Shown one piece after another: positions 1,584 through 64,000 of a stretch of DNA of 64,000 nucleotides. Positions within the stretch are counted from its first letter, which is position 1. Every line of letters starts with the position of its first letter. The notes beneath the pieces are model-generated. The model saw only the letters and a program-made list of their open reading frames with translations, was not told where the DNA came from and ran no database searches. Source of the stretch: a bacterium (lineage in GTDB: Bacteria; UBA8248); NCBI GenBank assembly GCA_965213625.1, contig CBDBZU010000004.1:384001-448000 (forward strand), in the 5' to 3' direction. A program made the position numbers and the translations under genes.

Positions 1584-1586
1584 GGC

Positions 1587-2256: not shown

Positions 2257-2307
2257 GCCTCCCCGAGCGGGCCGCCTCGTCTCCAAGGCAGCCCGCTCGG
2301 GGCAGGC
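2257..2307. terminator. GC-rich intergenic hairpin after tctC (attenuator or mRNA-stabilising stem)
   Basis: CCCCGAGCGGGC...GCCCGCTCGGGG inverted repeat between tctC and tctB. Confidence 0.55.
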
Positions 2308-2329
2308 ATTGCGCGATGAGCCGTCTAGC

Positions 2330-3475: not shown

Positions 3476-3819
3476 GATGCTCTCCTCTTTGTAGAAAAAA
3501 AACGACCGCTCCAGAGCAAACGGCGGCCAACCACAAACCCGTCTGGCTTTCGTTACACCCAGAATCTCTTCATACTTTTTTTGACTGGATTCGATCCTAG
3601 CACGAAATACGGATGACGCCAAATTTCCATTGGAGACTCGCCCAAAACCCGCCTTTCGCACGCTGCGGTTTCGTGTAGAATCACACTGTTTCGGGGGACC
3701 AGGCGAAATCGTTCATCCAATCGTAACGCGCGCAACACCTAATCGTAATCCGGCTGTGATAAAATACCACGAACGTGAAAAATAGATGAATCCCACATCA
3801 GCAGAAGGAAACGCGAGAT

Positions 3820-4848: not shown

Positions 4849-4917
4849 AATTCCGCGCACCTCGGAGCGCCCGTTCTCATCGGGCCTCCGCCGCGCTCTC
4901 CCAAGCCATCGGTTGAA

Positions 4918-6609
4918 TCAGAAAACCGGCGTTTCCCGGTAGGTTCCCCAGACCGACTTCAGTTTCTCGGTGATTTCTCCCATTGTCGCGCCCTCGCGCA
5001 CGAGTTCAATGGTTGTGGGCATGATGTTACGCGTTTCGTCCTTAGCGTCCGAGACGAGTTCCTCCAGAAGCATCTCCACCCTGGCGTTGTCGCGCTCCTC
5101 GCGCACCCTTTTCGTCCGCGCAATCTGCCGATCGGCGGTCGAGTAATCATAGGGATGGGTCTCAATCTCCTGGTTTTCGTCTTCCTCGACCATGGTGTTG
5201 ACCCCGATGACCGGCTTCTCGCCGGATTGCTTGCGCAAGGCGGTCTCATAAGCGAAGTCGGCGATCTGCTTCTGGAACCAGCCTTCCTCGATCAATTTGA
5301 CCGTGCCGCCGTTTTCATCCACATAGTCGAGAATCTCGAAAATGCGCTTCTCGAACTCGTTGGTCAGGCTCTCGAGGTAGTAGGAGCCGCCCACCGGATC
5401 GATGACGTTGGTGACGTTTGTTTCCTCTGCAATTACCTGCTGCGTGCGCAAAGCCATCCGCATGGCGTCCTCGGTCGGGATCGCGAACGCTTCGTCATAA
5501 CCGTTGGTGTGTAGCGACTGGCAACCGCCGAGGACTGCGGCGAGGGCCTGGAACGCCGTGCGCACGATGTTGATCCGGAATTGCGGCTTGGTGAGGGTCG
5601 CGGCCGCTGTCTGGCAGTGGAAACGAAGCCGCATCGATTCGGGGTTCTTTGCGCCGAAGCGCTCTTTCATGATCCTGGCGTAACAGCGGCGCAGCGCCCG
5701 GAACTTGGCGATCTCCTCGAACAGGTCCGCTTGCGAGACGTAGAAGAAAGCCAGCCTCGGCGCGAATTCGTCGACGCTCATGCCGGTCTTCAGCACCTCC
5801 TCCACGTAGACGATCAGGTTGGCCATGGTGAAGGCGGCCTCCTGCAAGGGCGAGGCGCCGGCTTCGGAGATGTGATAACCCGAGATGTTGATCGGGTTGT
5901 AGCGCTTCATGTTGCGGCCGCAGAAGGATATGCAATCACGCACGATGCGGACCGACGGCGCGATGGGATAGATGAACTCCTTCTGCGCCATATACTCTTT
6001 CAGTATGTCCGCCTGGATGGTTCCCGAAAGCCTGTTCAGGTCGAGACCGCGCTTCTCGGCCAGCGCCACATACATGGCGAGCAGGATCCAGGCGCTCGGG
6101 TTGATGGTCATCGACACGGATATGTTCTCGAGATCGATGCCGTCGTACAGCGCCTCCATGTCGGCGAGTGTATCCACGGCCACGCCTTCGCGGCCCACCT
6201 CGCCCTCGCTCATCGGATGGTCGGAGTCGTAGCCCATGAGCGTGGGCATGTCGAAGTCGGTCGAAAGTCCCGTCTGTCCCTGTGAGATCAGGTATTTGAA
6301 GCGTTCGTTGGTGTCTTCGCCGGTGCCGAAACCGGCGATCTGGCGCATGGTCCACACCCGGCTGCGGTACATCGTCGGGTAGGGCCCGCGCGTAAAGGGA
6401 TAGCGCCCCGGCAGACCGATATCCTCGAGTGGCGTTTCATCGATATCGGCGGCGGTATAGACGCGCTGCACCGGAAAATCGCCGGTTGTGAAGAATTGCT
6501 CCTTGCGCTCGGCTTGTTTATTCAGGAAGGTGGCTACCTCGTTGCTCTCCCAACCCTCGATCTCGCTCCGGAGCTTCTCAAGCGAATCTGGAGTGAACAT
6601 CTCGTTCAT
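4918..6609 (-). CDS. hcmA: 2-hydroxyisobutyryl-CoA mutase large (substrate-binding) subunit
   Basis: Acyl-CoA mutase fold (PGRYPFTRGPYPTMY, INISGYHISEAG, QSLHTN) with TMRQIAGF (Ile) and STDFDMPT (Asp); start ATG at 6609. Confidence 0.88.
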   Translation of the reverse strand: MNEMFTPDSLEKLRSEIEGWESNEVATFLNKQAERKEQFFTTGDFPVQRVYTAADIDETPLEDIGLPGRYPFTRGPYPTMYRSRVWTMRQIAGFGTGEDTNERFKYLISQGQTGLSTDFDMPTLMGYDSDHPMSEGEVGREGVAVDTLADMEALYDGIDLENISVSMTINPSAWILLAMYVALAEKRGLDLNRLSGTIQADILKEYMAQKEFIYPIAPSVRIVRDCISFCGRNMKRYNPINISGYHISEAGASPLQEAAFTMANLIVYVEEVLKTGMSVDEFAPRLAFFYVSQADLFEEIAKFRALRRCYARIMKERFGAKNPESMRLRFHCQTAAATLTKPQFRINIVRTAFQALAAVLGGCQSLHTNGYDEAFAIPTEDAMRMALRTQQVIAEETNVTNVIDPVGGSYYLESLTNEFEKRIFEILDYVDENGGTVKLIEEGWFQKQIADFAYETALRKQSGEKPVIGVNTMVEEDENQEIETHPYDYSTADRQIARTKRVREERDNARVEMLLEELVSDAKDETRNIMPTTIELVREGATMGEITEKLKSVWGTYRETPVF

Positions 6610-7582
6610 GGTCTCCCTCTCTTTCGAGCGTCGTCGAGAGCAACTCTTCCGCCAGTGAATAGGGGTCGCTCTCCCGGCGCATGAGCTGTTCGGCGAGTTT
6701 CGCGCTCGCCGCAGCCCTAGCAGCGTTGAATCGATCATACAATAGATTTTCGGCGGTCTTGCGCAGCCGGAATTCGGCGATGCTTTTGCGACGCGCCAGG
6801 CCCGCATCCGTATCCGAGGCCAGGTCGCGGTGCCGGGCGACCGCCTCCAGCAGCTCGTCGATTCCTTCTCCGGTAACGGAGCTTGTGCCAATCACGGGGG
6901 CAGCCCAGTCGGATGGGTCGCGCCCGTGGACTCCCAGCGTCAGCATTTGCTTCAAATCCGTCAGCGTCCGATTGGCGTCGCTGCGGTCGCATTTAGAAAC
7001 GACATGGATGTCGGCGATCTCCAGGAGGCCCGCCTTGATCGCCTGGACCTCGTCGCCAAGGCCGGGCGCGGAAACCACCACCGTGGTGTGGGAAGCCCGC
7101 ACGATCTCGACCTCGTCCTGGCCCACGCCGACGGTTTCCAGAATGATGACCCCGAAACCGGCGGCATCGAGAATATCGACCGCCTCGAGAGCCGCGCGCG
7201 CCATGCCGCCGGTCGCCCCGTGCGTTGCCATGCTGCGGATATATATGCCGGAGTCTGCGCTCAAGTCGCTCATGCGAATGCGGTCCCCCAGGATGGAACC
7301 GCCGGAATACGGAGAAGATGGATCAATCGCGATGATGCCGACCATCTCGCCGCCGGCGCGCAGTCTTTGCGCAAGCCCGCTGACGAGTGTGGATTTTCCG
7401 CTGCCGGGCACCCCGGTCATGCCGACGACGTGCGCTCGTCCGGCGAGTTTGTGAATCCGGGCGAGTGCGTCACGCGCTTCCGCCAGGCCCGACTCCGCGC
7501 GCGATATGAGGCGGCCGATCGCGGCCGGCTCGCCTGCTTGAACGCGGGCGATGAGTTCCACGGAAGGGACATAGGCTCCCAT
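6578..7582 (-). CDS. meaH: MeaB-family GTPase chaperone of the B12 mutase
   Basis: GVPGSGKST, IDPSSPYSGGSILGDRIRM, ETVGVGQDE motifs; inside the mutase operon. Confidence 0.9.
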   Translation of the reverse strand: MGAYVPSVELIARVQAGEPAAIGRLISRAESGLAEARDALARIHKLAGRAHVVGMTGVPGSGKSTLVSGLAQRLRAGGEMVGIIAIDPSSPYSGGSILGDRIRMSDLSADSGIYIRSMATHGATGGMARAALEAVDILDAAGFGVIILETVGVGQDEVEIVRASHTTVVVSAPGLGDEVQAIKAGLLEIADIHVVSKCDRSDANRTLTDLKQMLTLGVHGRDPSDWAAPVIGTSSVTGEGIDELLEAVARHRDLASDTDAGLARRKSIAEFRLRKTAENLLYDRFNAARAAASAKLAEQLMRRESDPYSLAEELLSTTLEREGDHERDVHSRFA

Positions 7583-9012
7583 CAGCGGTTTTCTTCATCC
7601 AGTTGTGTTTGCATCTCCTGGAAGACGGCCCTGTCGTCGATAACGCGGCGCGCCTTGAAATCCGTTCGGGGGATCGAGCCCGGCTCGACGATCTCAACAC
7701 CCGTCCGCAGCCCGAGCACCATCTGCAATTTATGCGCCACCTCGGTGCAGAACCGCGCGGCACCCTCGGGGTCGGCGAAGGTATCGGGGTCGGACTCGAC
7801 GCGCAACAGTAACTCGTCCATCGCCGCCTCGCGGCTGATTACGATCCGGTGCTCCCCGCCATAGTGCGCAAGTTCGTTGAGCGCGGCGTCTATCTCGCTC
7901 GGATAAACGTTCTCGCCGCGGATCGTGAACATGTCGTCGATGCGCCCGAAAATACCGTGCGGCAGGCGCGGATAAGTGCGTCCACACGGGTTCGGTTCGT
8001 CGACCCACCGGGTCAGGTCTCCCGACGCCAGGCGAATCATCGGCTGAGAGGCGCGTTCGAGATGGGTGTACACGGGAGTTCCCCGTTCCCCGTAGGGGAC
8101 CCGGCGCATGGTTTCGGGATCGCACACTTCCGTGTAGACGACGTCCTGCCAGCAGAGCATCCCGTCCGTCTCGGCCGAACTCGCCACGTTCATCCACGGA
8201 CTCATCTCGGCCATGGAGCCGCTGTCGTAAACCCTGGCCCCGTAGAGCTCCTCGATGCGCTCGCGGATGGCCGGGATCGAGGCGCCGGGCTCGCCGGAGA
8301 AGAACATGACTTTGAGCTGCAAGTCGCGAGGGTTCAGGCCCTCGTCTTCCGCGACCTGGGCGAGGTGTAAGGCGTAGGTCGGCGTACCGTAGAAGGCCGT
8401 GGGCTTCAGCATGTCGAGCCATTGCACGCAGCGCGCCGACATGCCGGACGCGCCGGCGCCGAACGGGAAAGCTCTTGCGCCGAGGCGTTCCGCGCCGGCG
8501 AGCGCTCCCCAGCTCCCCATGTAGAGAGAAAATACGGCGGCGACGCAAATCGTATCCCCGGGGCGCAGGCCCATGCCCCACATGATGCGCGCATGCGCGT
8601 TGGCTATGGCGCGCCAGTCGCCCTGCGAGATGGCGAAGGCGGTGGGCCGCCCGGTCGTACCGCTGGTGCCATGGATGTGAAAGACATCGTCTTCGCCCAC
8701 GCAGAGGTAATCGCCAAAGGGCGGATGGCGTTCCTGGGCCTCTCGCAGGTCCTTCTTGGTCAGGACCGGAACCTTCTCCTCGAAGTCTTCGAGCGACTTG
8801 AGCTGGCTCGGGTGAAAACCGGCCTCATCCCATTTGCGGCGATAGAGGGGGGCATGCTCGTAGGCGTAGGCGCAGACCTGGCCGAGACGCTCCAGGATGG
8901 CCTTCTCCCGGTCTCCCGCCGGCATCGTCTCCCGCCGGGGGAACCAGTAGCGGTTGTCCCGAGCCGGCAGAAAGTTCTCGTCGTAAGCGGGTGGGAATGA
9001 CCAGGACTCCAT
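7582..9012 (-). CDS. hcl: PaaK-like acyl-CoA ligase, probably 2-hydroxyisobutyrate-CoA ligase
   Basis: HGTSGTTGRP AMP-binding loop, GRIDDMFTIRGENVYP; located between hcmB and meaH. Confidence 0.8.
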   Translation of the reverse strand: MESWSFPPAYDENFLPARDNRYWFPRRETMPAGDREKAILERLGQVCAYAYEHAPLYRRKWDEAGFHPSQLKSLEDFEEKVPVLTKKDLREAQERHPPFGDYLCVGEDDVFHIHGTSGTTGRPTAFAISQGDWRAIANAHARIMWGMGLRPGDTICVAAVFSLYMGSWGALAGAERLGARAFPFGAGASGMSARCVQWLDMLKPTAFYGTPTYALHLAQVAEDEGLNPRDLQLKVMFFSGEPGASIPAIRERIEELYGARVYDSGSMAEMSPWMNVASSAETDGMLCWQDVVYTEVCDPETMRRVPYGERGTPVYTHLERASQPMIRLASGDLTRWVDEPNPCGRTYPRLPHGIFGRIDDMFTIRGENVYPSEIDAALNELAHYGGEHRIVISREAAMDELLLRVESDPDTFADPEGAARFCTEVAHKLQMVLGLRTGVEIVEPGSIPRTDFKARRVIDDRAVFQEMQTQLDEENR

Positions 9013-9022
9013 GGATGTCGGC

Positions 9023-9430
9023 TCAGCGCGCGCCGCGCTCCTCCACGAGTCGGGTAAGCGTATCGATAATCGTTTGCGGCGGCGTATCCTGCAGCAACAC
9101 CTTGCTTACCCCCATTTTCTTGAGATTGACCACATCTTCGTCCGGCATGACGCCGCCGGCCACGACGATCATGTCATCGGCGCCCCTGGCCCGAAGCAGG
9201 TCGAATATCTTGGGGAACACGGTCATCTGCACGCCGGACAGGAGACTTACGCCAAGCACGTCGACATCTTCCTGTACGGCGGCGGTCACCACCTCTTCCG
9301 GTGAGCGGTGCAGGCCGGTATAGATCACGTCCATACCGGCGTCCCGCAGGGCGCGTGCGACTATCTTGACGCCCCGGTCGTGACCGTCGAGACCTACCTT
9401 CGCCAACAGGACGCGAATTGGCTGACTCAT
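9023..9430 (-). CDS. hcmB: Cobalamin-binding small subunit of the mutase
   Basis: GLDGHDRG (DxHxxG) and SLLSG B12-binding motifs; start ATG at 9430. Confidence 0.9.
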   Translation of the reverse strand: MSQPIRVLLAKVGLDGHDRGVKIVARALRDAGMDVIYTGLHRSPEEVVTAAVQEDVDVLGVSLLSGVQMTVFPKIFDLLRARGADDMIVVAGGVMPDEDVVNLKKMGVSKVLLQDTPPQTIIDTLTRLVEERGAR

Positions 9431-9456
9431 GAGGCGTTCCTCATCGGGTTCTTTTC

Positions 9457-9477
9457 TGTATGCGAAATCAGTATACA
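9457..9477. promoter_or_regulatory. Candidate operator upstream of hcmB
   Basis: Imperfect palindrome TGTATGC-N7-GTATACA ~27 bp upstream of the start codon. Confidence 0.35.
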
Positions 9478-9612
9478 ACCTGCACAAAAAAACACCATAC
9501 CTTCAACGGGAAACAGAACCGGCACACAGGAAGAAACCATCTCGTGGACGCTCTTGTTCACCCGGATGAACGTATGAATTTTCCTCAGGCTGCCATTAAA
9601 CCGCGGGCGCAT

Positions 9613-23531: not shown

Positions 23532-24326
23532 TCATCGCCCCGAAAAGTGGGGCGGTCTCTTCTCCATGAAAGCCCTTCTGCCCTCAACGTAATCCGCACT
23601 CTCGAAACAAGCCTGGACCGCCGCTTGAACCGCATCCACGTCGCGCTCCGCCTCGTCTTTTTGCGCCTCGGTGATGGCCGTCTTGTATGCCCGGACGGAC
23701 AAGGGGGCGTTCGCTGCGATTTTCGCGGCCAGTGCGCGGACGTTCTCTTCGAGTTCATCCGCGGGCGCGACGCGGTTCACGAGGCCGAATTCGAGCGCTT
23801 GACGCGCGGAATATCTTTCTGCGGAAAAGGTCATCTCCTTGGCGCGCGCAGGCCCCACCAGCGCGATGAGCTCCCTCATGCTCTCGTGTCCGTAGGCCAT
23901 GCCGAGCCGAGCCGCCGGAACCCCGAAACGGGCGTCTTCTGAAGCGATGCGGATGTCCGCGCTCAGGGCGAGCGTGAGACCGCCGCCCAGACAGTAGCCG
24001 TGGATCATGGCGAGCAGGGGTTTGCCGAGGTTCGTCAGGCTGCGCTTGGCGCTCCACAACACGCTCGAGTAGTGCTTCACCTTATCGGGGTCGTTGCGGC
24101 TCTTCTCGAACTCGGAGATGTCGGCCCCCGAGACGAAGGCCTTCTCCCCGGCGCCGCGCATGACGACGACGCGCACAGCATCGTCCGTCTCGAAGGATTC
24201 GATGATCTGCGGAATCGCTTCCCACATATCGAGGCTCACGGCATTTCTCTTCGCCGGGTTGTTAAAGATCATCCAGCCGACGCCGTCCTCGACCTTCGCC
24301 AGCATCTTCTCGGTAACTGGCTTCAC
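23532..24326 (-). CDS. Enoyl-CoA hydratase/isomerase family protein
   Basis: NNPAKRNA, AFVSGADISEF, GYCLGGG, EGRRAFMEKRPP. Confidence 0.9.
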   Translation of the reverse strand: MKPVTEKMLAKVEDGVGWMIFNNPAKRNAVSLDMWEAIPQIIESFETDDAVRVVVMRGAGEKAFVSGADISEFEKSRNDPDKVKHYSSVLWSAKRSLTNLGKPLLAMIHGYCLGGGLTLALSADIRIASEDARFGVPAARLGMAYGHESMRELIALVGPARAKEMTFSAERYSARQALEFGLVNRVAPADELEENVRALAAKIAANAPLSVRAYKTAITEAQKDEAERDVDAVQAAVQACFESADYVEGRRAFMEKRPPHFSGR

Positions 24327-25510
24327 ACCACGCCCTCCTCGCGCAACGCCTCGATTTGCGCGGTGTCATACCCAAAATGCTCCTGCAGCAACTCCTCGGT
24401 GTGCTCGCCCGGTTCGGGCGCGGCGGAGCGCATGGGCTGGGGACTTTTGCCCATCTTGAGCGCCTGGCCCACGACCCGCATCTCCCCGAGTTTGGGATGA
24501 TGGACCTCTGGCGCCATGCCCAGCGTCTCCACCTGAGGGTCGGCCATCGTCTGATCCACCGAATAGATGGGGCCGCATGGAATCCCCGCCTCGTTCAGGA
24601 GCGCCACCCATTCCCCGGTTATTTTCCGAGATGTCAGGGCGTTGATGCGCGCATTCAGGGCGTCACGGTTCACGAGGCGGCTCTCCCTGTCCGCGTAGTC
24701 GGGATTCTCCGCCAACTCCGGTGCGCCGATCGCGCGGGTCAGACGCTCCCACAGGCGCTGCCCGCCCGCCTGGATGTTGATGAGGCCGTCCGCCGTCTCG
24801 AACACTCCGGTGGGGATGAACGTGGGGTGGTTGTTGCCCGCCTGGCCGGGGACCTCCCCCGCCATCAGGTAGCGAGCCATCTGCAAGTCCATCATCTGAA
24901 TCTGCGCCTCTAAAAGGGAGGTGTGCACCCAGCGTCCCTCACCTGTCCTCTCTCGGTCGAGCAGGGCAATCAAAATCCCCTGGGCGAGAATCATCCCGGC
25001 GGATAAATCAGATACCGCAACCCCCACGCGCATCGGCCCGCCCCCCGGCGCACCCGTGACCGACATCAGCCCGCTCATGCCCTGGGCTATCTGGTCGAGC
25101 CCTGGCCTCTCGGCGTAGGGGCCCGCCTGCCCGAAACCGGAGATGCTCCCGTAGACGATTCCAGGATTCACCCGCCGCACCGCCTCATAGTCGATTCCGA
25201 GCCGCTCCTTCACACGGGGGCGATAGTTCTCGACGATGACGTCGACGCGTTTTGCGAGCGCAAAGAAAATCTCCCTGCCCTTTTCAGTTTTCAAATTCAG
25301 CGTAAGGCTTTTCTTGTTGCGGTGTAAGTTCTGGAAATCGAACCCGTGCCTGCGCCCGCCCATCACGTCGACCCCCATCGAGGCGGGAAGCTCTATCTTG
25401 ATGACCTCCGCTCCCCAGTCGGCGAGTTGGCGCACCGCCGTGGGTCCAGAGCGGGCCTGTGTGAGGTCGAGCACCTTGAAGCGAGCGAGCGGCAGATACG
25501 GTTCGGTCAC
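24323..25510 (-). CDS. Family III CoA-transferase (CaiB/BaiF)
   Basis: KVLDLTQARSGP, LADWGAEVIKIE, RNKKS, ENYRP, SISGFGQ, VAVSD. Confidence 0.92.
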   Translation of the reverse strand: MTEPYLPLARFKVLDLTQARSGPTAVRQLADWGAEVIKIELPASMGVDVMGGRRHGFDFQNLHRNKKSLTLNLKTEKGREIFFALAKRVDVIVENYRPRVKERLGIDYEAVRRVNPGIVYGSISGFGQAGPYAERPGLDQIAQGMSGLMSVTGAPGGGPMRVGVAVSDLSAGMILAQGILIALLDRERTGEGRWVHTSLLEAQIQMMDLQMARYLMAGEVPGQAGNNHPTFIPTGVFETADGLINIQAGGQRLWERLTRAIGAPELAENPDYADRESRLVNRDALNARINALTSRKITGEWVALLNEAGIPCGPIYSVDQTMADPQVETLGMAPEVHHPKLGEMRVVGQALKMGKSPQPMRSAAPEPGEHTEELLQEHFGYDTAQIEALREEGVV

Positions 25511-25724
25511 GATGGAGACTCCACCTGATGTGAGGGAACATCCGGGTTTTGAGCAACTTTCACGATTTATGAGTGTTTGGGCGTATCTTAGCAGGTTTCG
25601 GGAGGAGGCCTAAACGCACCGGGGGTATACTTTCATTTTCCACGCGAAAAACTTCGTGGACGCCAATAATGCCTTGCGTCAAGTCAGAGGTGTCAATTTC
25701 AGGCAACGAGTGATTCATCTCGAA

Positions 25725-26668
25725 TCGATAACGCTCCTTTCTCAGTCGCGTTCTACCTTCGGCGGCTACTCAGGGTGAAGTCGTTTCGGTAGCCAAAAAT
25801 GACGAGGGGTACGCGTTCCCTAGCAGAACCGGGATTTTCAACAGCCCCCTTGTCAGGGTCAAAACCGACCGAAGAGGGAGGTATTGCGAGACGATGTGTT
25901 TCTCGTATATGGCTTATGCAAACGCTCGTTCCTCACTCGCGTTCGACCCCCCGACAAGGGGGTGTTTTTCATCGGGCATTCCCCTCGGGATGTCCGACCC
26001 CTCAAAGGGGGAGTGGATGTCCCCTACTCCCTGGTTAGTAAAACCCTTAATTGATCGAACCCATTAGAAAAAGAGGGACAGGTCGCGACCTGTCCCTACA
26101 AAACCTGCAAGACTCCTTTGTTGTACTTTCTCAACAACCCTTCATCAGTCGCATTTTCCCGCATTTGCGATCAGGGGAGAGGAGGCGGACGGCAGTATCC
26201 TGAAAGATTTGCGCGCTTCACGAATGCCTCATCCCGGCGGCGCGAACGCCCCGCATTTGCGCGCATTTGCCGTCGCGGGAGAAGAAGCTGACGGGCGTAT
26301 CCTGAAAGGTTTGCGCGCGACGCGGTTTCCACTCGTGGGGGGGGAGTCCGGCTCCGGTTTCCACGAGGCCGGTGTGCGCATTTGCCCGCATCTGCGGTGG
26401 CGCTGCTCAGGGAGAGAGCGGGTATGATGGCGGAGCCGCGCGGTTCCTTCGGGAATCAGCAAACCCTTCCTCATCGGGCGGGTCAAACCCTCGCTCATCG
26501 CTCGGGTTTTATATCTGAAAATTTCGATAAAATTAGATAAATTCACGGGGTTTATCGTTAAATTTCAGGCAATTTATTTTCCTGGGAAATGACGCCGACG
26601 GGTCGCAGCGCAGGGGAATTCTGCCATGGGCCGCCCGTTCCTTCATGACGGGAAATGCGGGGAGTTGC
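25725..26668 (-). repeat. Long non-coding repeat, copy A (inverted relative to 33829..34820)
   Basis: Reverse complement aligns with copy B along its length; the ORF track shows near-identical spurious peptides at 25799/34743 and 26209/34333. Confidence 0.95.
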
Positions 26669-26790
26669 GCACCCGCCTGGGGCGTTCGCGCGGCGCCGGG
26701 AGCGAAAGCGCAATCGGCCACGAATGGCGCACGTCACCCTCATTCGAGCGAAGCGCCCCAGGGGATGACGCCATAAGCAGCTGATTTCGC

Positions 26791-27567
26791 TTATTTTCCC
26801 TGGAAATCGGCGATCCTTTTCTCCAGGAACGCGGAGGCGCCCTCGAACTTGTCTTCCGTCGTCATGAGGCAGGCCTGGCCGAGGCGTTCAGCCACCATGC
26901 CGGCCTCGGGGCCGTACTTGAGGCCCGTGTTGATGGCGATTTTCGCGATGCGAACCGCCAGCGGGCCCTTGCTCATCATCTTTTCCGCGCATTTGCGCGC
27001 AGCTTCGAGCAACTCCCCGGCCGGGACGACCTGGTTCACCAGACCGATGCGGTGGGCCTCGCGCGCGTCGATGATGTCACCCGTCAGGATGAGTTCCTTC
27101 GCTTTGCCGACGCCCACCAGGGAGGCGAGCCTCTGGGTGCCGCCGGCTCCTGGCATGATGCCGAGGTTGACTTCGGGCTGGCCGAAACGGGCGGTTTCGC
27201 TCGCGATGCGGACGTCGCAAGCCATTGAAAGTTCACACCCTCCGCCCAGGGCGAAGCCGTTCACCGCGGCGATGACGGGCTTTTCGACCACCTCGAGGCG
27301 CATGAGGGCGCGCTGCGAAGGGGCGGCGAGGCCGTCGATGAGGCTTCGATTCTTAATCTGGGCGATGTCAGAACCGGCGGCGAAGCATTTATCGCCCGCG
27401 CCCGTGAAGATGATGACCTGAACGTCATCGTCCGCTTCCAGTTCCTCCACCACGGCGCCCACTTCGCGCCAGGTCTTGGGGTCGAGCGCGTTCCGCTTCT
27501 CGGGGCGGTTGATGGTGATGAGCGCGATTCCTTGTGATATCTCGATCAACAGGTTGTCATACGGCAT
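26791..27567 (-). CDS. Enoyl-CoA hydratase (crotonase-like)
   Basis: INRPEKRNAL, AAVNGFALGGGCEL, GQPEVNLGIMPGAGGTQRL with both catalytic Glu; start ATG at 27567. Confidence 0.92.
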   Translation of the reverse strand: MPYDNLLIEISQGIALITINRPEKRNALDPKTWREVGAVVEELEADDDVQVIIFTGAGDKCFAAGSDIAQIKNRSLIDGLAAPSQRALMRLEVVEKPVIAAVNGFALGGGCELSMACDVRIASETARFGQPEVNLGIMPGAGGTQRLASLVGVGKAKELILTGDIIDAREAHRIGLVNQVVPAGELLEAARKCAEKMMSKGPLAVRIAKIAINTGLKYGPEAGMVAERLGQACLMTTEDKFEGASAFLEKRIADFQGK

Positions 27568-27795
27568 TTCGTCGAACTCCTTTTGCGTTGCGTATGTGGA
27601 CATCTCCATGGTGAGGAGAGACGTGGATGCGTGAATCGATGAGAAGATAGCCCATGGAACGGCGTGCGTCACCTGACGGCGCGATTGGCGGCATTCCATG
27701 GAAATTTGAAAAATCTACTCCAGCCGGTGGCCGCACTCACCAACAAACGTAAATAAACAAATAAAATCAGAGAGTTGCCTGAGAGCACCTTATTG

Positions 27796-44910: not shown

Positions 44911-45459
44911 ATGACGAGGTATGAGTCCCTGAGTCTGCTCGCCGCATATTTGAATCTCATCGCCGCATACGGCGGCCTTGCGCTGATTCATCACGGCATC
45001 CGCGTGATGGCGCGGGGCGCGGAGACGCGCGCGGCGACTTCCGAGCGCACGCACAACGAGAGGATGACCGAATCTCAGCGAAAGCACGACGAGTGGATGG
45101 AAGAGTCACGGCGCAGAGATGCCGAATCTGAACGCAGGCATCAACAGGAGTTGGAGGAATCACGACGCAGACATGACGCGGTGATGGAAGAGTCACGGCG
45201 CAGAGACGCCAAATCTGAACGCAGGCATAAGCAGGAGTTGGAAGAATCTCTGCGCAGGCATAATGAGAGAATGTCGGATATTCAGCGCGGGCGGGAGGAA
45301 TCAAAAAGCAGTCACAATGAGAGAATGGCCTCGCTGCGGGCGCTGATAGACAGCCAGGCCGAGGGCCGCAAGGCGTTGCGCGAATCGATTGAAGCGCAAA
45401 CCGAGAGCCGCGAGGCGCTTCGGACGCTGGTAGCGCGCACGAGCGGTGAGTCGGCATGA
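44911..45459 (+). CDS. Membrane-anchored coiled-coil repeat protein of unknown function
   Basis: N-terminal hydrophobic helix followed by E/R/H-rich repeats; 2 x 87-bp internal duplication at 45085..45258. Confidence 0.65.
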   Translation: MTRYESLSLLAAYLNLIAAYGGLALIHHGIRVMARGAETRAATSERTHNERMTESQRKHDEWMEESRRRDAESERRHQQELEESRRRHDAVMEESRRRDAKSERRHKQELEESLRRHNERMSDIQRGREESKSSHNERMASLRALIDSQAEGRKALRESIEAQTESREALRTLVARTSGESA

Positions 45460-45544
45460 ACGCGCTTAGAATTTTGTTTGAATGTGGAAATACATATCCG
45501 GCGGCTATGACGCGCCACATTTGAATCAGGAGGAGTTCACCAAA

Positions 45545-46453
45545 ATGAACGCGAAAAACACGCTCGATAGTCTGGAAGTGGCGCCGACGGGCGCCGCCTT
45601 GGGGGCCGAGATCAGGGGCGTCGACCTGGCCCAGCCCATGCCCGATGAGGTGAAGCAAGCCCTGCGTGACGCATGGACGGAACACCTCGTTCTCCTGTTC
45701 CGTGATCAGGAGATGACCGAGGAGCAGCACCTCGACGCCACGCGCATCTTCGGCGAGGCCGTGGTGCCCGCCGCCAAGGCGTTTTACGACAAGGCGGGGA
45801 AACAGCAGTCCTGGGCCGCCAAGTATGCGGAAATCACCGTCGTCCACAATCTGGATGATGACGGAAATCCCGTGCAGCAGAACGAAAGCCTGGGATCCGG
45901 CGAGGTCGTCTGGCACAACGACAATTCCTACGCCGAAAAACCGCCCGCGGGCAGCATGCTCTACGGGCGGATGCTGCCGCCGTCGGGCGGGAACACCTGC
46001 TTCAGCAACCAGTACATGGCGTATGAGACCCTGCCCGAGGACGTGAAACAAAAAATCGAGGGCAAGACCGCCGTCCACGATGCGAGCAGAAACTCCGCGG
46101 GCACACTCCGGCCGGGCGTCAAGCTGCCCACCAAACCCTCCGAGGTGCCGGGGCCGCACCATCCCCTCGTGTGCACGCACCCCGAATCAGGCAGAAAAGC
46201 ACTCTATCTCGGTCGCAGGCGGGTCTATCCCTCCCAGTATATCGACGACATGGAAGAACAAGAGAGCGAGGAGCTTCTCGATTTCCTCTGGGAGCACGCA
46301 AGCCGCGACGAACTCGTCTGGGCCCACGTATGGCGGCTCGGCGACGTGCTGCTGTGGGACAACCGCTGCACCATGCACTACCGCGAGCCTCACGCGGGCA
46401 CGCATCCGCGCCTCATGCACCGCACGCAGATCCAGGGCGCGCAGCCAGTGTAG
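45545..46453 (+). CDS. TauD/TfdA-family Fe(II)/2-oxoglutarate dioxygenase
   Basis: GAEIRGVDL, WHNDNS (HxD), WDNRCTMH, RLMHR; RBS AGGAGG before ATG at 45545. Confidence 0.92.
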   Translation: MNAKNTLDSLEVAPTGAALGAEIRGVDLAQPMPDEVKQALRDAWTEHLVLLFRDQEMTEEQHLDATRIFGEAVVPAAKAFYDKAGKQQSWAAKYAEITVVHNLDDDGNPVQQNESLGSGEVVWHNDNSYAEKPPAGSMLYGRMLPPSGGNTCFSNQYMAYETLPEDVKQKIEGKTAVHDASRNSAGTLRPGVKLPTKPSEVPGPHHPLVCTHPESGRKALYLGRRRVYPSQYIDDMEEQESEELLDFLWEHASRDELVWAHVWRLGDVLLWDNRCTMHYREPHAGTHPRLMHRTQIQGAQPV

Positions 46454-46484
46454 GTTTCGTGGCGGAAAGTAGGTACGCTCAACT

Positions 46485-46890
46485 GTAGGGACAGGTCGCG
46501 ACCTGTCCCTACTTTTTTGAGGTTCCCCGAGGAGACGTTCATGCCTTTCACTCCTCCCTTGAGGGGACTTTTGAAAAACCCGGCACTTGGACAATGGACA
46601 AACGCGTGCTCCTCGACTTGTATGCCGCCGTATCCGTCTCACCCTGAGTAGCCGCCGAAGGCGGCGTATCGAAGGGCGCTCCCTCGATACGGCGCGCAAA
46701 CGCGCCTACTCGGGATGAGGGAGTGTTGAAATCCTCGGTCGAAATTGATCTCCGGTGTCGGAACCGATTGATGAATGAGGGTTCGACGGAATCCAGTTCC
46801 GATCTGAACGACGATACCATTACTCGGTCGACAAACTAGAACGTAGCGGACAGGCCCCCGTGCCTGTCCGAGGTCGCGACCTGTCCCTAC
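46485..46890. repeat. Intergenic REP mosaic bounded by GTAG-type palindromes
   Basis: Perfect 28-bp palindrome GTAGGGACAGGTCGCGACCTGTCCCTAC at 46485..46512, variant at 46843..46890, CTCACCCTGAGTAG pair at 46638..46720, IS-end-like motifs at 46563 and 46719. Confidence 0.85.
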
Positions 46891-52128: not shown

Positions 52129-52932
52129 ATGGAGAAACTCATCATCACCAACTGCGCGGCGGATACCCGGAAGCACTCGGGCGTCCCCAAGCGGCTCCAG
52201 ACGCCCGACGCCGTCGCCAAAGAGATCAAGGAAAGCTACGACGCCGGCGCGGCCATCGCCCACATCCACGGCATCCCCATGAAGCTCGAAAGCTGGGAGC
52301 CGCTCACGAACGCGGTGCGCGAGGCCTGCCCCGAGGTACTAATCCAGTTCGGTATCGCCGCGATGGGCCTGCCGGGAAGACAGAAGATCATCCACTTGAA
52401 GCCGGATATGGCCTCCATCGCCTTAGGATCCCATGATTTCGCCTTCGTGGATGCCGACCTCCTCGTCGAACACTCCCGCCAGGAGATAGAAGACCAAGTG
52501 CGCCTGTTCAACGACCACGGCGTGAAGCCCGAGTTCGAGTGCTTCAACCTCGGCCACCTGTGGAACCTGGAGTGGCTGCTGGACAAGGGGCTGGTGGAAG
52601 ACCCCGTCGTCATCACCATCTTCTTCGGCTGGCCGGGCGGATTTTACGCCCCCGCCACGCTCAAGGAGCTTCTCCACCGCATCGACCACCTGCCCGAGGG
52701 CTGCGTGTTCTCGTGCAGTTCGGCGGGCCCGACTTCGAACGCGCTCGAGACCGTCACCATCATCGAGGGCGGCCACGTGCGCGTGGGCACCGAGGACGAG
52801 CCCTACTACACCGAGGGCGTGCTGTGCGAGAACAACGCGCAATTGGTCGCGCGCATCGCGCGGATCGGCCACGAACTCGGGCGCGACCCGGCCACGGTGG
52901 ATGAGGCGAAGAAAATACTCGGCATGGACTAG
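52129..52932 (+). CDS. Beta-keto acid cleavage enzyme (BKACE/DUF849), copy 1
   Basis: AGAAIAHIH (HxH), GVKPEFECF, GGHVRVGTED, NAQLVARI, GRDPAT. Confidence 0.88.
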   Translation: MEKLIITNCAADTRKHSGVPKRLQTPDAVAKEIKESYDAGAAIAHIHGIPMKLESWEPLTNAVREACPEVLIQFGIAAMGLPGRQKIIHLKPDMASIALGSHDFAFVDADLLVEHSRQEIEDQVRLFNDHGVKPEFECFNLGHLWNLEWLLDKGLVEDPVVITIFFGWPGGFYAPATLKELLHRIDHLPEGCVFSCSSAGPTSNALETVTIIEGGHVRVGTEDEPYYTEGVLCENNAQLVARIARIGHELGRDPATVDEAKKILGMD

Positions 52933-52964
52933 ACGGAATTTCAGGCATCATAAAGGAGCGTTTC

Positions 52965-53759
52965 ATGGATAAGATGATGATCATCAACTGCGCGGCGGAC
53001 ACCTCGATGCACGAGGGCGTGCCGCAGCGTTTCGCGGATTCTGAAGTCCTCGCCGACTCTGTGGAAAAGGCTTATGAGTCGGGCGCTTCCACCGCCCACA
53101 TCCATGCGCCGCCCACGAACTACGAGGCCTGGGCGTCTCACTCCAAGGCCATCAGGGACAGGTGCGGAATCATGCTCCAGTACGGCATCTCCACCCAGAC
53201 GGTCGAGCAGCGAAAAGAAGTGGTCAAGAACCATCCCGAGATGATGTCCGTCGCCGTGGGTGCGCACAACATGGCGTTTATCGCGCGCGACGTGATGATG
53301 CTCCACCCCCGCGAGGAATTGGCCGAGATGATGCGGCTGTGCAGGGACTACAACGTGAAGCCCGAGTTCGAGGTCTTCACTCTGGGTGAGACCTGGATGA
53401 TCGACGACCTGCTCCAAAAAGGGCTTCTCGAGCCGCCCGTTCTCATGACGTGCTTCTTCGGGCGTCCGGGTGGGGCGTGGTCGCCGCCCTCGCTGAGTGA
53501 GTTTTTGCACCGCGTCTCGAACCTGCCCGCGGATTCGGTCTACATCACGAGCGCCACCGGCCCCACGCACATCCACATGCAGACGATGGCGGTCATGCAC
53601 GGCGGCCACGTGCGCGTAGGCACGGAGGATGAGCCCTATCTCCACCCCGGCGAACTGGGCGACAACGCCGATCACGTCGCGCGCATCGCGCGTATCGCGG
53701 GCGAGATGGGCCGCGAAATCGCGAGCGTGGACGAGGCGAAAGCGATGATAGGAATTTGA
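52965..53759 (+). CDS. Beta-keto acid cleavage enzyme (BKACE/DUF849), copy 2
   Basis: AHIH, VKPEFEVF, GGHVRVGTED, GREIAS. Confidence 0.88.
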   Translation: MDKMMIINCAADTSMHEGVPQRFADSEVLADSVEKAYESGASTAHIHAPPTNYEAWASHSKAIRDRCGIMLQYGISTQTVEQRKEVVKNHPEMMSVAVGAHNMAFIARDVMMLHPREELAEMMRLCRDYNVKPEFEVFTLGETWMIDDLLQKGLLEPPVLMTCFFGRPGGAWSPPSLSEFLHRVSNLPADSVYITSATGPTHIHMQTMAVMHGGHVRVGTEDEPYLHPGELGDNADHVARIARIAGEMGREIASVDEAKAMIGI

Positions 53760-61759: not shown

Positions 61760-62047
61760 TCAAGCGCCAGGGCGAAGCCGAAGGCCCAGGGCGCGCATGA
61801 CCTTGAGCACGGTGGCGAACTCGGGATTCCCCTCGGGCGAGAGCGCCTTGTAGAGGCTCTCCCTGCCGAGACCGGTCTCGGCGGCGACCTTCGTCATCCC
61901 TCTGGCTCGCGCCGCGTCGCCCAACGCCGCCGCGATGAGCGCCGGGTCGCCATCTTCGAATGCCGCCTCGAGATAAAGAACGATATCCTCTTTGGTATTT
62001 AGATTATCCGCCGCATCCCACGGCTTGACCCTTGTATTCGTCATCAC
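61760..62047 (-). CDS. Addiction-module antitoxin, HTH (HI1420-like)
   Basis: WDAADNL, YLEAAFE, ALGDAARARGM, GLGRESLYKALS.EGNP.FAT. Confidence 0.92.
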   Translation of the reverse strand: MMTNTRVKPWDAADNLNTKEDIVLYLEAAFEDGDPALIAAALGDAARARGMTKVAAETGLGRESLYKALSPEGNPEFATVLKVMRALGLRLRPGA

Positions 62048-62053
62048 AAACTC

Positions 62054-62347
62054 CTATAGCTCTTGCGCCAAATTCCGCGCTCTTAGGATATCCCGAGCCT
62101 GAGTACTTTTATCTCCCCCGGCCAGCAGCAACACCAAGGATTGCCCTTGCTGTTCGAAGTAAACACGATAGCCGGGCCCGTAGTCTATCCGAAGTTCCGA
62201 GACGCCATGCCCGACAGCCCGCACGTCACCAGGGTTACCCAAAGACAACCGTCTGATGCGGGTATTGATGCGCGCCTTTGCCCGCTTATCCCGAAGCCTC
62301 TCGAACCATCGGGCGTATTGATCAGTTTGACGAACCTCGATCATCAC
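62054..62347 (-). CDS. RelE/ParE/HigB-family addiction-module toxin (HI1419-like)
   Basis: GNPGD..VG.GVSELRIDYGPGYRVY, LLLAGGDKSTQ; toxin-first gene order. Confidence 0.93.
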   Translation of the reverse strand: MMIEVRQTDQYARWFERLRDKRAKARINTRIRRLSLGNPGDVRAVGHGVSELRIDYGPGYRVYFEQQGQSLVLLLAGGDKSTQARDILRARNLAQEL

Positions 62348-62350: not shown

Positions 62351-62379
62351 ATTGTATCCTGAAAGATACATCAAGGCAA
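62351..62379 (-). promoter_or_regulatory. TA promoter with overlapping operator; likely leaderless mRNA
   Basis: Minus strand TTGCCT-N17-TACAAT; TGTATC-N6-GATACA palindrome at 62353..62370; ATG begins 7 nt after the -10 box; no SD. Confidence 0.65.
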
Positions 62380-62463: not shown

Positions 62464-63537
62464 CTACCCTCTGATTTTCTCGATGACGCTCAGCGTCTGT
62501 GCGCCGGGGGTGGGAATCCACATGGATTTCTGTCCCTCGCCGCCGCCTACGATGAGGATGAGGGCGTCCGCGTGGGTGAGGATGGGCACGGAGGCTTCAG
62601 GGTCCGTCCTGTCGACCCAGACGGGAAAGGTGGGGCCTTTCGATTTTCCGCGCACGCCCACGTGCTTCCAGGGCTTTCGCGCCTTCTCGAAGAGATAGCG
62701 CTTCACGTCCGCCTTGCTCCAGCCCACCCGCGCGATGTAGGCGGCGTGCTCGGGCGCCATGACGAGCACGGGTTCCCCCTGGGAGGAGAGATTGTTCCCA
62801 CCCAGCGTCGCCATCGAGTCCGCGTAGCCGAAGAGCAGCGCGAGTGGGTCGGTGTTGTAGTTGTCCGTGATGCAGTGGGGCGCCTCGCCGCAGGTGAGCG
62901 TCACCGTGCTCTCATCCGGCTCAAAGCCGCGCTCCACGTGATACGGCTCCCAGGGGTTCGCGTCTTCGTTCTCGGCGATGCAGTAGGTGTATTTGCCCGG
63001 ATGCGCGTGCTGGGCGCGGTCCACCTCGCCGGGGACGGCTCCCCCTAAGTTGATGAGGCAAAGCCTGAGCGCGCGGCCAATCGTCGCGTTCGCCCGCCAG
63101 CCGGGGCCGAAAAGGCCGGAGCCCGAGTTGAGCTTAAGGCGCTTGGCAATGGGGCCGTTCACGATGATGAGCGCGGTGGCGGGGTGCGTGGTCGTCTGGC
63201 GGTGGCTGAGCCCGTAGCGTGGCCTGGTGACGGCGGAGACGGCCGCGACGACGACGGGCAGGTACTCAGGCGCGCAGCCGGCCATCACGGCGTTCACCGC
63301 AATCGCGCGGACCGTCGCCACCCCCATGAGGGGAGGAATCTCGGCGATTTCCTCATCCGCCTCCCCCGGCCAGCCGGTAAGCAGACCCTCCACGCGCTCG
63401 CGCGTGGGCGGGACGATGGGCAGCCCGTCCGTCCAGCCGCGCTCGTAGAAATAGGCGTTCACCTCATCGAGGGAGCCCGTGAGCGGCAAAATCCGCCTAC
63501 CCGCCTCGAGAGAGGGGTTTTCGACGTTCACGGCCAA
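62464..63537 (-). CDS. Conserved protein of the type found next to UGSC (seleno)proteins
   Basis: GWTDGLPIVPPT, IAVNAVMAGC.PEY, IVNGPI, RANATIGRALRL, AENE..PW.PYH motifs. Confidence 0.78.
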   Translation of the reverse strand: MAVNVENPSLEAGRRILPLTGSLDEVNAYFYERGWTDGLPIVPPTRERVEGLLTGWPGEADEEIAEIPPLMGVATVRAIAVNAVMAGCAPEYLPVVVAAVSAVTRPRYGLSHRQTTTHPATALIIVNGPIAKRLKLNSGSGLFGPGWRANATIGRALRLCLINLGGAVPGEVDRAQHAHPGKYTYCIAENEDANPWEPYHVERGFEPDESTVTLTCGEAPHCITDNYNTDPLALLFGYADSMATLGGNNLSSQGEPVLVMAPEHAAYIARVGWSKADVKRYLFEKARKPWKHVGVRGKSKGPTFPVWVDRTDPEASVPILTHADALILIVGGGEGQKSMWIPTPGAQTLSVIEKIRG

Positions 63538-63549
63538 ATTCCGCCTCCC

Positions 63550-64000
63550 CTATTTCGGACTAAGATTCCGGGGGCCTCTGAATTTCTTCTCCGCATATTC
63601 GGCCCGAAGTTTTTCCGGGTCGCCGGTGAGCGCGCGGACGACTTCAGACACGACGGCGTCCGCCTTGGGATGAAGCGCTTCTCTCTCGGGAGCGGCGAGT
63701 GGATGTTCCATCTCGACGATGGGCAGTCCGCCGTAGCCCTGTCTCCTCGCTATTGCGCGCCCGCTGTGGCTGAAGCCCCGGCTCACGATAACGCAGGCGG
63801 GGCTTCCCATCCGCTCAATCTGAACCGCGTCGCGGACACTCCACGACGTGGAGGAACCTCAGTGCCCCACGCCGACGAGAACGGCGTCGCAGCGCGCGTG
63901 CAGCTCCTCGATAATTTCAGGGGATGCCGCCTGGGCCAGGTGATGCTTCCTGCGCTGGACGACTTCCTTGACGCCGAATGAGGCTCGAAGCCTCTCAAGC
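63550..64000 (-). CDS. UGSC-family selenoprotein (5'-truncated by window edge), Sec at UGA 63861..63859
   Basis: One frame reads ...CDAVLVGVGH-UGA-GSSTSWSVRDAVQIERMGSP...LPIVEMEHPL; the ORF track caught only the part after UGA. Confidence 0.8.
63828..63848 (-). promoter_or_regulatory. Candidate bacterial SECIS element
   Basis: Minus strand CGUCGUGGA-GUG-UCCGCGACG, a 9-bp stem (one G-U pair) with a G-containing loop, separated from the UGA by 10 nt. Confidence 0.7.

Follow-up and report, generated by a model that had tools for sequence, protein, structure and literature searches.

The minus strand at the edge of the window, the 64-kb stretch of DNA analyzed here, probably encodes the two subunits of one enzyme: a UGSC-family selenoprotein, whose UGA codon is decoded with the aid of a SECIS element, and an operon partner of the 'Unknown_1' family, with the selenol working together with two cysteines of the partner. 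The window contains the last two thirds of the selenoprotein gene, followed after 12 nt, in the same operon, by the gene of its regular partner. Both families have been recorded before. What is new is that the window protein and its closest relatives, which share the motif H-[U/C]-G-S-S (HxGSS), form one supported clade of 12 aligned sequences, in Sec and Cys forms, that falls below the curated naming cut-off of NCBIfam. Also new are the frequency of the gene pair among related loci, the predicted complex of a Cys-form pair, the flavodoxin-like model and a weak, recurrent similarity to GrdB/PrdB selenoproteins.

Results

An open reading frame continues through a UGA codon

On the minus strand, an open frame extends from the window edge (63999) to a stop codon at 63552..63550. 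It passes through one TGA, at 63861..63859, where the translation reads ...LVGVGH-U-GSSTSWSVRDAVQ.... The open frame and a match to Pfam PF24696 mark the segment 63550..64000 as the 3′ part (149 codons and a stop) of a selenoprotein gene in the H-U-G-S-S subclade of the UGSC family. In close relatives the N-terminal pieces have 98 aa and end in GVGH, whereas 46 residues precede U in the window; about 52 N-terminal codons lie past its edge. The ORF called with table 11 (63550..63810, 86 aa) is the part that starts at the first ATG downstream of the TGA.

The read-through fragment matches PF24696 (UGSC) with an E value of 6.2e-37 and a score of 127.8 bits (gathering score, 25). Fragment residues 2-125 align with profile positions 48-171 of 172, and Sec, at residue 47, is flanked by matched sequence on both sides. 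The assignment of the UGA (63859..63861, minus strand) to selenocysteine comes from the aligned codon in homologous genes of many phyla, which is TGA in 62 and TGC or TGT in 5. Cys is found at the Sec-aligned site in eight protein clusters, and Cys forms also occur within the HxGSS clade (P0121-P0128).

These observations agree with much of an earlier note on this DNA, which had described a single in-frame UGA in an otherwise open frame, the motif H-U-G-S-S and, from these, a selenoprotein gene. All three stand, the last because homology extends to either side of the UGA, homologs have Cys or Sec at the corresponding position and the hairpin qualifies as SECIS. The search that the note had proposed, for homologs aligning across the UGA with Cys at this position, is answered by PF24696, which spans the site, and by the five genes with Cys codons. 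Its expectation that gene callers would split the gene also proved right: public predictions for close relatives consist of a 98-aa N-terminal piece ending in GVGH and a C-terminal piece of 84-91 aa, and the gene and its close relatives are filed as two 'hypothetical proteins' cut at the Sec codon.

Within the 64-kb window, selA, selB and selD were absent (Pfam, 56 ORFs) and ARAGORN found no tRNA of any kind, tRNA-Sec included, so that Sec decoding in the source organism rests on comparative evidence. A scan of the called ORFs for a single in-frame TGA returned only neighboring genes that share a frame, and no further copy of the UGSC or partner gene was found by tblastn elsewhere in the window.

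The hairpin downstream of the UGA covaries across the family

Ten nucleotides after the UGA, as the earlier note had described, begins a hairpin (63828..63848, minus strand) with a 9-bp stem (63848..63840 with 63836..63828) and the loop GUG (63839..63837). All nine pairs form in the window sequence. Judged from pairing and covariation, it is the SECIS element of the UGSC family. Taken alone, the window hairpin stands out only modestly from shuffles (z scores of -1.19 and -1.67), and at the latter 10 of 200 shuffles fold equally well. Across the 62 UGA-bearing sequences, 84.1% of stem cells are paired versus 75.4% in shuffles, and none of 500 shuffles reaches the observed value; when the 3′ arm is shifted along the same sequences, 20-49% of the cells pair. 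One stem pair shows compensatory change, being GC in 33 and CG in 25 of the 62. The loop begins with GU in 58/62, and the Ser codon that supplies this GU is AGT in 44 of 45 cases, versus 9.9% AGT among the Ser codons of the partner genes.

Among Cys forms, the stem retains 3-4 of nine pairs in L015, L046 and L051 and seven in L005 and L050. The three closest HUGSS loci (L002-L004) keep 4-5 of the nine pairs and carry another hairpin at a greater distance downstream, indicating that the SECIS element is not uniform within the HxGSS clade. No Rfam family reached its gathering score anywhere in the window; around the UGA, Rfam gave chance-level matches (E 0.11-5.5), none of them a SECIS.

The window protein belongs to a divergent clade of the UGSC family

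UGSC was listed as a selenoprotein family without known function by Zhang and Gladyshev in 2007 (PMC1976440) and 2008 (PMC2398784), and the latter counts it among the most abundant selenoprotein families of ocean metagenomes. Three HUGSS sequences are already present in the 'UGSC-containing' part of the sequence file of PMC2398784. The earlier note had presented the gene as a hidden selenoprotein. In the sense of new, this does not hold: the family is known from both papers and has models in Pfam (PF24696) and NCBIfam (NF041046), and the window gene is one more member. Among the literature matches listed, 'HUGSS' and 'UGSC family' did not occur, and those for 'UGSS' concerned urban green spaces and other acronyms.

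PF24696 matches all 33 members of our UGSC alignment (A4), HxGSS rows included. The NCBIfam equivalog model NF041046 has a curated naming cut-off of 125 bits. Canonical members exceed it (L050, 149; L044, 141.4; L031, 134.6 bits), whereas the window fragment (105.8 bits) and the full-length HxGSS relatives L002 (107.6) and P0122 (102.5) fall short. The window protein departs from the [U/C]-G-S-C motif, with U, G and S kept and Ser as the fourth residue; the same Ser is found throughout the HxGSS clade (12 of 12 rows). In the tree, the window and the other 11 HxGSS rows are grouped with support of 99/97, and the window branches first inside the group. A clade-specific HxGSS model would repair both the split annotation and the missed naming.

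The downstream gene encodes a member of the 'Unknown_1' family

The partner gene (62464..63537, minus strand, 357 aa) starts with TTG at 63537, 12 nt after the UGSC stop, at the spacing given in the earlier note. A GGAGG ribosome-binding site (63544..63548, minus strand) lies 6 nt before the TTG. The gene was placed in 'Unknown_1' by its adjacency to UGSC and by its match to Figure S1A of PMC2398784, the 2008 paper in which an 'Unknown_1' domain is drawn fused to UGSC. The AVNAVMAGC.PEY.P block of the partner matches the 'Unknown_1' alignment, and the block AVNAVMAGCAPEYLPVVVAA...NGP agrees with the printed sequences, including the highlighted conserved Cys. The notion that this gene had gone unnoticed is thereby corrected. 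Fusions as in that figure are also found among the related loci, whereas the window has separate genes.

The partner family is large and uncurated. It has thousands of members, with at least 7999 homologs, and 'hypothetical protein' is the source name of every one of the 120 matches listed; no Pfam or NCBIfam model matches the partner. In the ESM Atlas it falls in unnamed 'hypothetical protein' clusters, one of which (at 0.89) carries PF24696 on 16% of its members, as fits fusions to UGSC. Residues D37, T45, C88, C186 and E189 are kept in 77/77 loci, including 17 without UGSC, and H200 is nearly universal; C88 and C186 are the only two Cys kept in all 77. The model of the partner is of mediocre confidence (pLDDT 72.1). 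A fold search with it returned nothing at E ≤0.001, the best match being a class I fumarate hydratase (E 5.5e-3, TM 0.29), and a sequence profile of the partner gave no match to solved structures at E ≤10.

UGSC and partner genes are paired across loci

Of 77 loci, 60 have a UGSC gene adjoining the partner on the same strand; it lies upstream of the partner in 30 of these and downstream in the other 30. In-frame, stop-free fusions, whose frames were checked by hand, occur in both orders (L004, L018, L019, L022, two in L024, three in L055, and L072). A RefSeq plasmid has a 'hypothetical protein' followed by a 'UGSC family (seleno)protein'. Culturable carriers of the pair include Roseovarius and Variovorax, with plasmid loci. 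The partner is found without a UGSC gene in 17/77 loci, some of them cut by contig ends. Five Poribacteria loci (L014, L017, L036, L039 and L043) have full flanks and lack the UGSC gene, which indicates that the partner can exist without it. No third gene is conserved: a CoA-transferase III gene is present in 11, TctC in 10 and a TrxB-like gene in 4 of 79 loci. Acyl-CoA dehydrogenase and asparaginase genes are also among the linked genes. Judged from the neighborhoods, the substrates may be small organic acids or CoA esters, but any assignment of the reaction is a guess.

The predicted fold is flavodoxin-like and the Sec loop lies at a predicted interface

The fold was modeled on a relative, L002, and not on the truncated protein of the window. 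The AlphaFold2 model (pLDDT 94.7) has five parallel strands in an α/β order, with U101 between strand 93-99 and helix 104-117. The Foldseek matches listed for it are lumazine synthases, a receiver domain, succinyl-CoA synthetase and similar proteins (TM 0.29-0.44 on the query), with no thioredoxin-fold protein among them. The UGSC fold is predicted to be flavodoxin-like and not thioredoxin-like, in contrast to the 'likely Trx-like' assignment given in PMC2398784. By sequence, the UGSC profile gave chance matches to solved structures, the best being a designed 'protein origami' (E 0.0049).

Co-folding was carried out with the cognate pair of locus L050, a Cys form with the canonical motif D-C-G-S-C from an organism other than that of the window. 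The pair reached an ipSAE of 0.84 in three of three runs, and the best of three controls reached 0.00. That mark was attained by 116/157 solved complexes and 2/215 mismatched pairs, counts that hold roughly here because our own alignments were used. The runs share at least 84% of their contacts, the partner chain has a pLDDT of at least 85, and the predicted interface comprises 126-183 contacts. These involve residues 112-114 (C-G-S) and 19-32 of the UGSC chain and residues 35-38, 73-77 and 101-109 of the partner chain. A search of solved structures gave no comparable complex. For this cognate Cys-form pair the prediction, a modeling result and not a measured one, supports binding and places the [U/C]GS loop in the contact region. 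The co-folding check suggested in the earlier note is thus positive for a related locus, whose pair was modeled in place of the window's own two proteins. Together with the adjacency in 60/77 loci and the in-frame fusions, the score of 0.84 against 0.00 upholds the note's proposal that the downstream gene is a functional partner.

Discussion

A selenol that may act with partner cysteines

We consider it likely that the two proteins act as one enzyme. On the comparative evidence, the UGA at 63861..63859 is decoded as Sec with the help of the hairpin 10 nt downstream. The small protein, ∼200 aa in full, is predicted to be a flavodoxin-like α/β domain with Sec placed between a β strand and the start of a helix. 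In the modeled L050 pair, the [U/C]-G-S loop and a conserved N-terminal peptide would dock onto the invariant partner motifs PPT, NxVMAGC and the TTTH region. The selenol may then act together with the universally kept Cys88 and Cys186 of the partner. Canonical U-G-S-C members could close an internal selenenylsulfide. The HxGSS clade is without the second Cys, so its selenol would have to be recycled by a partner Cys or an outside thiol; mono-selenol chemistry is a reasonable inference for this clade because there is no Cys at +3.

The alternative with most in its favor, although it remains doubtful, places the UGSC protein outside the active site as a thioredoxin-like electron carrier: electrons would pass from NAD(P)H through a TrxB-like flavoprotein and UGSC to a Cys88-Cys186 disulfide formed in the partner during catalysis. 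The conservation of both partner Cys in 77/77 loci, including the 17 without UGSC, suits such a disulfide, and the canonical UxxC lies where a strand passes into a helix, a placement shared with redox carriers. Thioredoxin-reductase-like genes (trxB or Pyr_redox_2) do lie nearby in L019, L046, L078 and L079, but these are just 4 of 79 loci. A fixed subunit agrees better than a diffusible carrier with the stable fusions, which occur in either order, and with the large interface of the model (126-183 contacts). A carrier of the dithiol type also needs a second Cys, and the HxGSS clade has none.

Glycine reductase (GrdB) and D-proline reductase (PrdB) use Sec to attack a substrate bound to the large subunit, with reductive cleavage of a carbon-heteroatom bond. 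It is conceivable, but unlikely, that the present pair is a distant, simplified relative of such Stickland-type reductases (protein B of glycine, sarcosine, betaine or D-proline reductase) and works in the same way. In both systems a larger subunit accompanies the Sec protein, and weak similarity recurs. Among 33 UGSC sequences, NCBIfam matches at E ≤10 were found to gly_red_sel_B (TIGR01917) in 12 (best E 7.6e-4), to PrdB (TIGR04483) in 7, to GrdF and various_sel_PB in 5 each and to GrdH in 3. In two sequences the matched span contains Sec (L002 residues 87-166 on profile positions 333-406 of 431), and a pairing of Sec with Sec is conceivable. However, the score is 14.9 bits against a cut-off of 602.2, Pfam GRDB matches 0/33 UGSC sequences, the GrdE and PrdA models match 0/28 partner sequences and no pyruvoyl-forming site was identified.

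Still more speculative, and quite improbable as a whole, is the widest form of the proposal. UGSC and 'Unknown_1' would constitute a two-subunit Se-dependent reductase, very widespread among aerobic and environmental bacteria and archaea, with a Sec domain sharing ancestry with GrdB/PrdB and small organic acids or CoA esters as substrates. In the HxGSS clade, of which the window is the earliest branch, the role of resolving thiol would have passed from the small subunit to Cys88 or Cys186 of the partner, or else to a thiol from outside. If true, the clade would be a one-selenol version of the enzyme.

Very unlikely, in our estimate, is a role of the Sec/Cys as ligand of a metal or iron-sulfur center at the subunit interface, shared with Cys88, Cys186 and His or Glu residues of the partner. 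Exactly two universal Cys, E189 and the nearly universal H200 could furnish ligands; the predicted interface includes the [U/C]GS loop, and one Sec/Cys suffices in the HxGSS clade. In the fold search the weak top matches to the partner were class I fumarate hydratases, which depend on Fe-S, but these are not significant (E ≥5.5e-3, TM ≤0.30) and no metal-site motif was identified. That the TGA is an ordinary stop or disabling mutation, leaving the 86-aa ORF and the upstream frame as separate or dead genes, can practically be set aside: table-11 calling and the public annotation of relatives do yield two pieces, but the codon is TGA in 62 homologous genes of many phyla and a Cys codon in others, a single family model (PF24696) runs across the site, the hairpin covaries and the codon used in its loop is under constraint as RNA.

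The modeled complex, a fold unlike that of thioredoxin, the weak GrdB/PrdB connection and a natural variant without second Cys turn a listed name into a two-protein enzyme that can be tested.

Comparison with known systems

Canonical UGSC proteins and the window protein share the Sec/Cys, Gly and Ser columns, the SECIS hairpin and the partner gene. They differ in the motif, D-U-G-S-C versus H-U-G-S-S, and the His at +9 of canonical members (SxHD) is Arg in the window.

GrdB and PrdB, whose motif type is given as UxxC in the table of PMC9312934, share this motif type with UGSC, as well as a second subunit and weak, recurring matches around Sec. Their profile has 431 positions, against ∼200 aa for UGSC, and the scores are far under the cut-offs; the similarity is weak but recurrent. 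The hosts also differ: Grd and Prd are known from clostridial fermenters, unlike UGSC.

An identical local motif, H-U-G-S-S, is present in the ArsC-type family 'Arsenate reductase 1 UxxS' (PMC2398784, Table 2 and sequence file), in 11 sequences of the file. This family (pfam03960) is unrelated, has its motif close to the N terminus and showed no homology to the window protein; the likeness amounts to five residues. With a single redox residue and Ser at +3, it provides a precedent for one-selenol chemistry.

An In-Frame UGA within a UGSC-Family Gene

The frame of the small protein runs on the minus strand from the window edge to a stop at 63552..63550 and, as described in the earlier note, is open through a single TGA (63861..63859), read here as selenocysteine (Sec). 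Translation around this codon gives ...ARCDAVLVGVGH-U-GSSTSWSVRDAVQIERM..., and ∼52 N-terminal residues lie beyond the window edge. All that table 11 shows of the gene is an 86-residue ORF (63550..63810, minus strand). The Pfam family PF24696 (UGSC family) matches residues 2–125 of the read-through fragment (E = 6.2e-37); Sec is residue 47, and homology therefore spans the UGA. Against the NCBIfam model NF041046 (UGSC family (seleno)protein) the fragment scores 105.8 bits, below the cut-off of 125 bits. Public predictions for close relatives consist of 98-residue pieces ending exactly in ...LVGVGH and 84–91-residue pieces beginning just past the UGA, such as two adjoining "hypothetical proteins" from a Nitrospinae-labelled MAG, which indicates that gene callers do split the gene at this codon, as had been anticipated. 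The features described in the earlier note are confirmed in every detail, and comparative evidence argues that this is a true selenoprotein gene. It is not a hidden or new one, as first claimed, since the UGSC family and the gene pair have been described since 2007–2008; it is a new member of both, belonging to a distinct H-U-G-S-S clade.

Conservation of the Sec Codon and a SECIS-like Hairpin

UGSC homologues were sought, reading through TGA, in the 77 loci retrieved as encoding relatives of the partner. At the position of the window UGA, 62 genes have TGA and five (L005, L015, L046, L050, and L051) have TGC or TGT; Cys also occupies this site, as H-C-G-S-S, in eight protein clusters (P0121–P0128). 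The 9-bp stem-loop reported 10 nt past the UGA was found at 63848..63828 on the minus strand (5′ arm CGUCGUGGA, loop GUG, 3′ arm UCCGCGACG), with 9/9 pairs formed. Taken alone, the window hairpin is unremarkable versus shuffles (z scores of −1.19 and −1.67), and no match to it was found in Rfam. The absence of a tRNA, selA, selB, or selD from the 64-kb window counts against Sec decoding.

When 62 UGA-bearing sequences, comprising the window and 61 from the loci (L022 at 190 was omitted because of N bases), are aligned without gaps, the hairpin lies at the same position. Pairing is seen in 84.1% of stem cells versus 75.4% after shuffling, with 0/500 shuffles reaching the observed value, and only 20%–49% of cells pair when the 3′ arm is slid. 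Six of the nine pairs vary on both sides, one of them being GC in 33 sequences and CG in 25, and the protein co-varies with the stem RNA, W..IH, C..VH, G..VL, and R..LR occurring as linked sets. In bacterial SECIS elements, the loop presents G and U at about this distance from the UGA. The loop starts with GU in 58/62 sequences. The Ser codon providing this GU is AGT in 44/45 cases, whereas AGT makes up only 9.9% of Ser codons in the neighboring partner genes. Among the Cys forms, three keep 3–4 of the nine stem pairs and two keep seven. These data are good comparative evidence in favor of a working SECIS. All five Cys-form genes carry a further Cys at codon 6 after the first (C-G-S-C-x-S-x-C), in place of the Ser (AGU) that supplies the SECIS loop in Sec forms; this third Cys near the motif appears at the very site released from the RNA constraint.

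The H-U-G-S-S Clade

The usual motif in the family alignment is D-U-G-S-C-T-S-W-S-[IV]-H-D. The window and three of the loci (L002, L003, and L004) have H-U-G-S-S, together with R replacing the later H. In a maximum-likelihood tree of 41 rows, a branch supported at 99/97 unites all 12 HxGSS rows (Sec or Cys at x), and the window branches first among them. The window retains the family-type hairpin; in L002–L004 only 4–5 of the nine pairs form at this position, and a different hairpin, CCGCG-CGUGA-CGCGG, follows a few bases downstream. Full-length HxGSS members score 102.5–107.6 bits against NF041046, below its cut-off, compared with 134–149 bits for canonical members. The UGSS variant is real and conserved, in Sec and Cys forms alike. 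As a novelty it does not stand: PMC2398784 lists three GVGHUGSS sequences under "UGSC-containing" among its GOS sequences (supplementary file 3).

The Partner Protein and Its Linkage to UGSC

The partner ORF (62464..63537, minus strand; 357 residues) begins with a TTG 12 nt past the stop of the small protein gene, the spacing first noted, and GGAGG can be read 6 nt upstream of the TTG. The partner has no Pfam or NCBIfam family and no solved relative in a sequence search. It has at least 7999 homologues, and the 120 matches listed all bear the source name "hypothetical protein." AlphaFold2 modelled it with middling confidence (pLDDT 72.1), and no fold among solved structures matched the model (best E = 5.5e-3, TM 0.29). 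The block AVNAVMAGCAPEYLPVVVAA...TTTH...NGP is the one printed for "Unknown_1" in Fig. S1A of PMC2398784, a panel that shows this domain fused to UGSC.

A UGSC gene adjoins the partner gene on the same strand in 60/77 loci, upstream and downstream equally often (30 each); in the other 17, some cut by contig ends and others not, none was found beside it. The two share one frame without a stop in L004 (an HUGSS locus), L018, L019, L022, L024, L055, and L072. L024 has two such fusions, one in the order partner-UGSC, and L055 has three in tandem (1311-6762, plus strand; 559, 563, and 563 residues). Three partner copies are found in L033, with UGSC genes, and in L028, with none. The L019 fusion (7375-8997, plus strand) has Ser at the Sec/Cys position (aligned motif GM-S-GGS) and may have lost the redox residue while keeping the fusion. 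Partner residues D37, T45, C88, C186, and E189 are conserved in 77/77 loci, whether UGSC is present or not.

A Predicted Complex

The cognate Cys-form UGSC protein and partner from L050 (a Sphingomonas MAG) were co-folded. Among canonical loci with this gene order, L050 is the nearest to the HxGSS clade, and it is readable under table 11. A score of 0.84 was obtained in 3/3 runs, and the best of three controls gave 0.00. The mark used is reached by 116/157 solved complexes and 2/215 mismatched pairs, a calibration that is only rough here because our own alignments were used. The runs share at least 84% of contacts, with a partner-chain pLDDT of at least 85. Searches with the partner and UGSC profiles found no similar solved complex, so the pass does not reflect a memorized structure. 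The confident interface comprises the C-G-S residues 112–114 and the conserved N-terminal peptide 19–32 of the small protein, and residues 35–38 (PPT), 73–77 (beside an invariant Cys), and 101–109 of the partner. The small protein and partner are predicted to bind, as modelled on relatives rather than the window's own proteins.

Fold and Possible Distant Relatives

The model of the L002 protein (pLDDT 94.7) is a five-stranded parallel α/β domain with U101 between strand 93–99 and helix 104–117. The Foldseek matches listed (lumazine synthases, a receiver domain, succinyl-CoA synthetase, and similar; TM 0.29–0.44) include no thioredoxin-fold protein. The "likely Trx-like fold" given for UGSC in PMC2398784 disagrees with this model and these matches.

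When 33 family members were scanned against NCBIfam at a lax threshold, weak matches to the selenoprotein B group recurred: TIGR01917 (GrdB) in 12/33 (best E = 7.6e-4), PrdB (TIGR04483) in seven, GrdF and various_sel_PB in five each, and GrdH in three. Two sequences have Sec within the segment that aligns to profile positions 333–406 of 431; the GrdB Sec presumably lies near position 350. In the relevant passages of three papers carrying both UGSC and GrdB/PrdB terms, lists and tables give the families separately. Kinship with selenoprotein B is offered as a lead only.

Gene Neighborhoods

The partner gene is followed immediately by an addiction-module-like pair (61760..62347, minus strand) with its own sigma-70-like promoter site (62379..62351, minus strand), and then by an amino-acid ABC transporter; nothing here is linked to the UGSC pair. 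The first module gene is a 97-residue ORF with no Pfam match at 1e-5, and the second (95 residues) matches PF21716, a probable addiction module antidote protein (E = 7.7e-31).

Neighbors differ across 79 loci, with family III CoA-transferases in 11, TctC receptors in 10, and TrxB-like reductases in four; a Roseovarius plasmid has the order hypothetical protein (partner), UGSC family (seleno)protein, trxB. Asparaginase occurs in 4/79, including two of the three HUGSS loci, where it adjoins the pair (L003:5038-6036, plus strand; L004:4842-6059, minus strand); L020 and L073 have such a gene as well. Genes for acyl-CoA and organic-acid metabolism are plentiful in the window, at 4918..9487, 23532..27699, and 52129..53759; they encode methylmalonyl-CoA-mutase-like and B12-binding proteins, a family III CoA-transferase, two enoyl-CoA hydratases, and two tandem BKACE genes. 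Such genes recur near UGSC pairs elsewhere; here they are 10–58 kb distant. At 44957..46699 (minus strand), ORFs of 170 and then 407 residues share a frame, separated by one TGA and three codons; they have no Pfam family and no tblastn similarity to UGSC or the partner, and are probably just neighboring genes.

Proposed Function

Most likely, UGSC and its partner are the two subunits of one enzyme, and the Sec loop would complete or serve the Cys-bearing site of the partner. The two-subunit part of the earlier proposal is retained; the partner itself is already on record as "Unknown_1" in Fig. S1A of PMC2398784. The small protein acting as a dedicated redox carrier for the partner ranks second, and Sec as a metal ligand at the interface is the least favored reading. 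Use of one selenol with Ser at +3 has a precedent in the ArsC-type "Arsenate reductase 1 UxxS" selenoproteins, which make up the other 11 HUGSS sequences in PMC2398784 supplementary file 3 and carry the same five residues, H-U-G-S-S, in an unrelated family.
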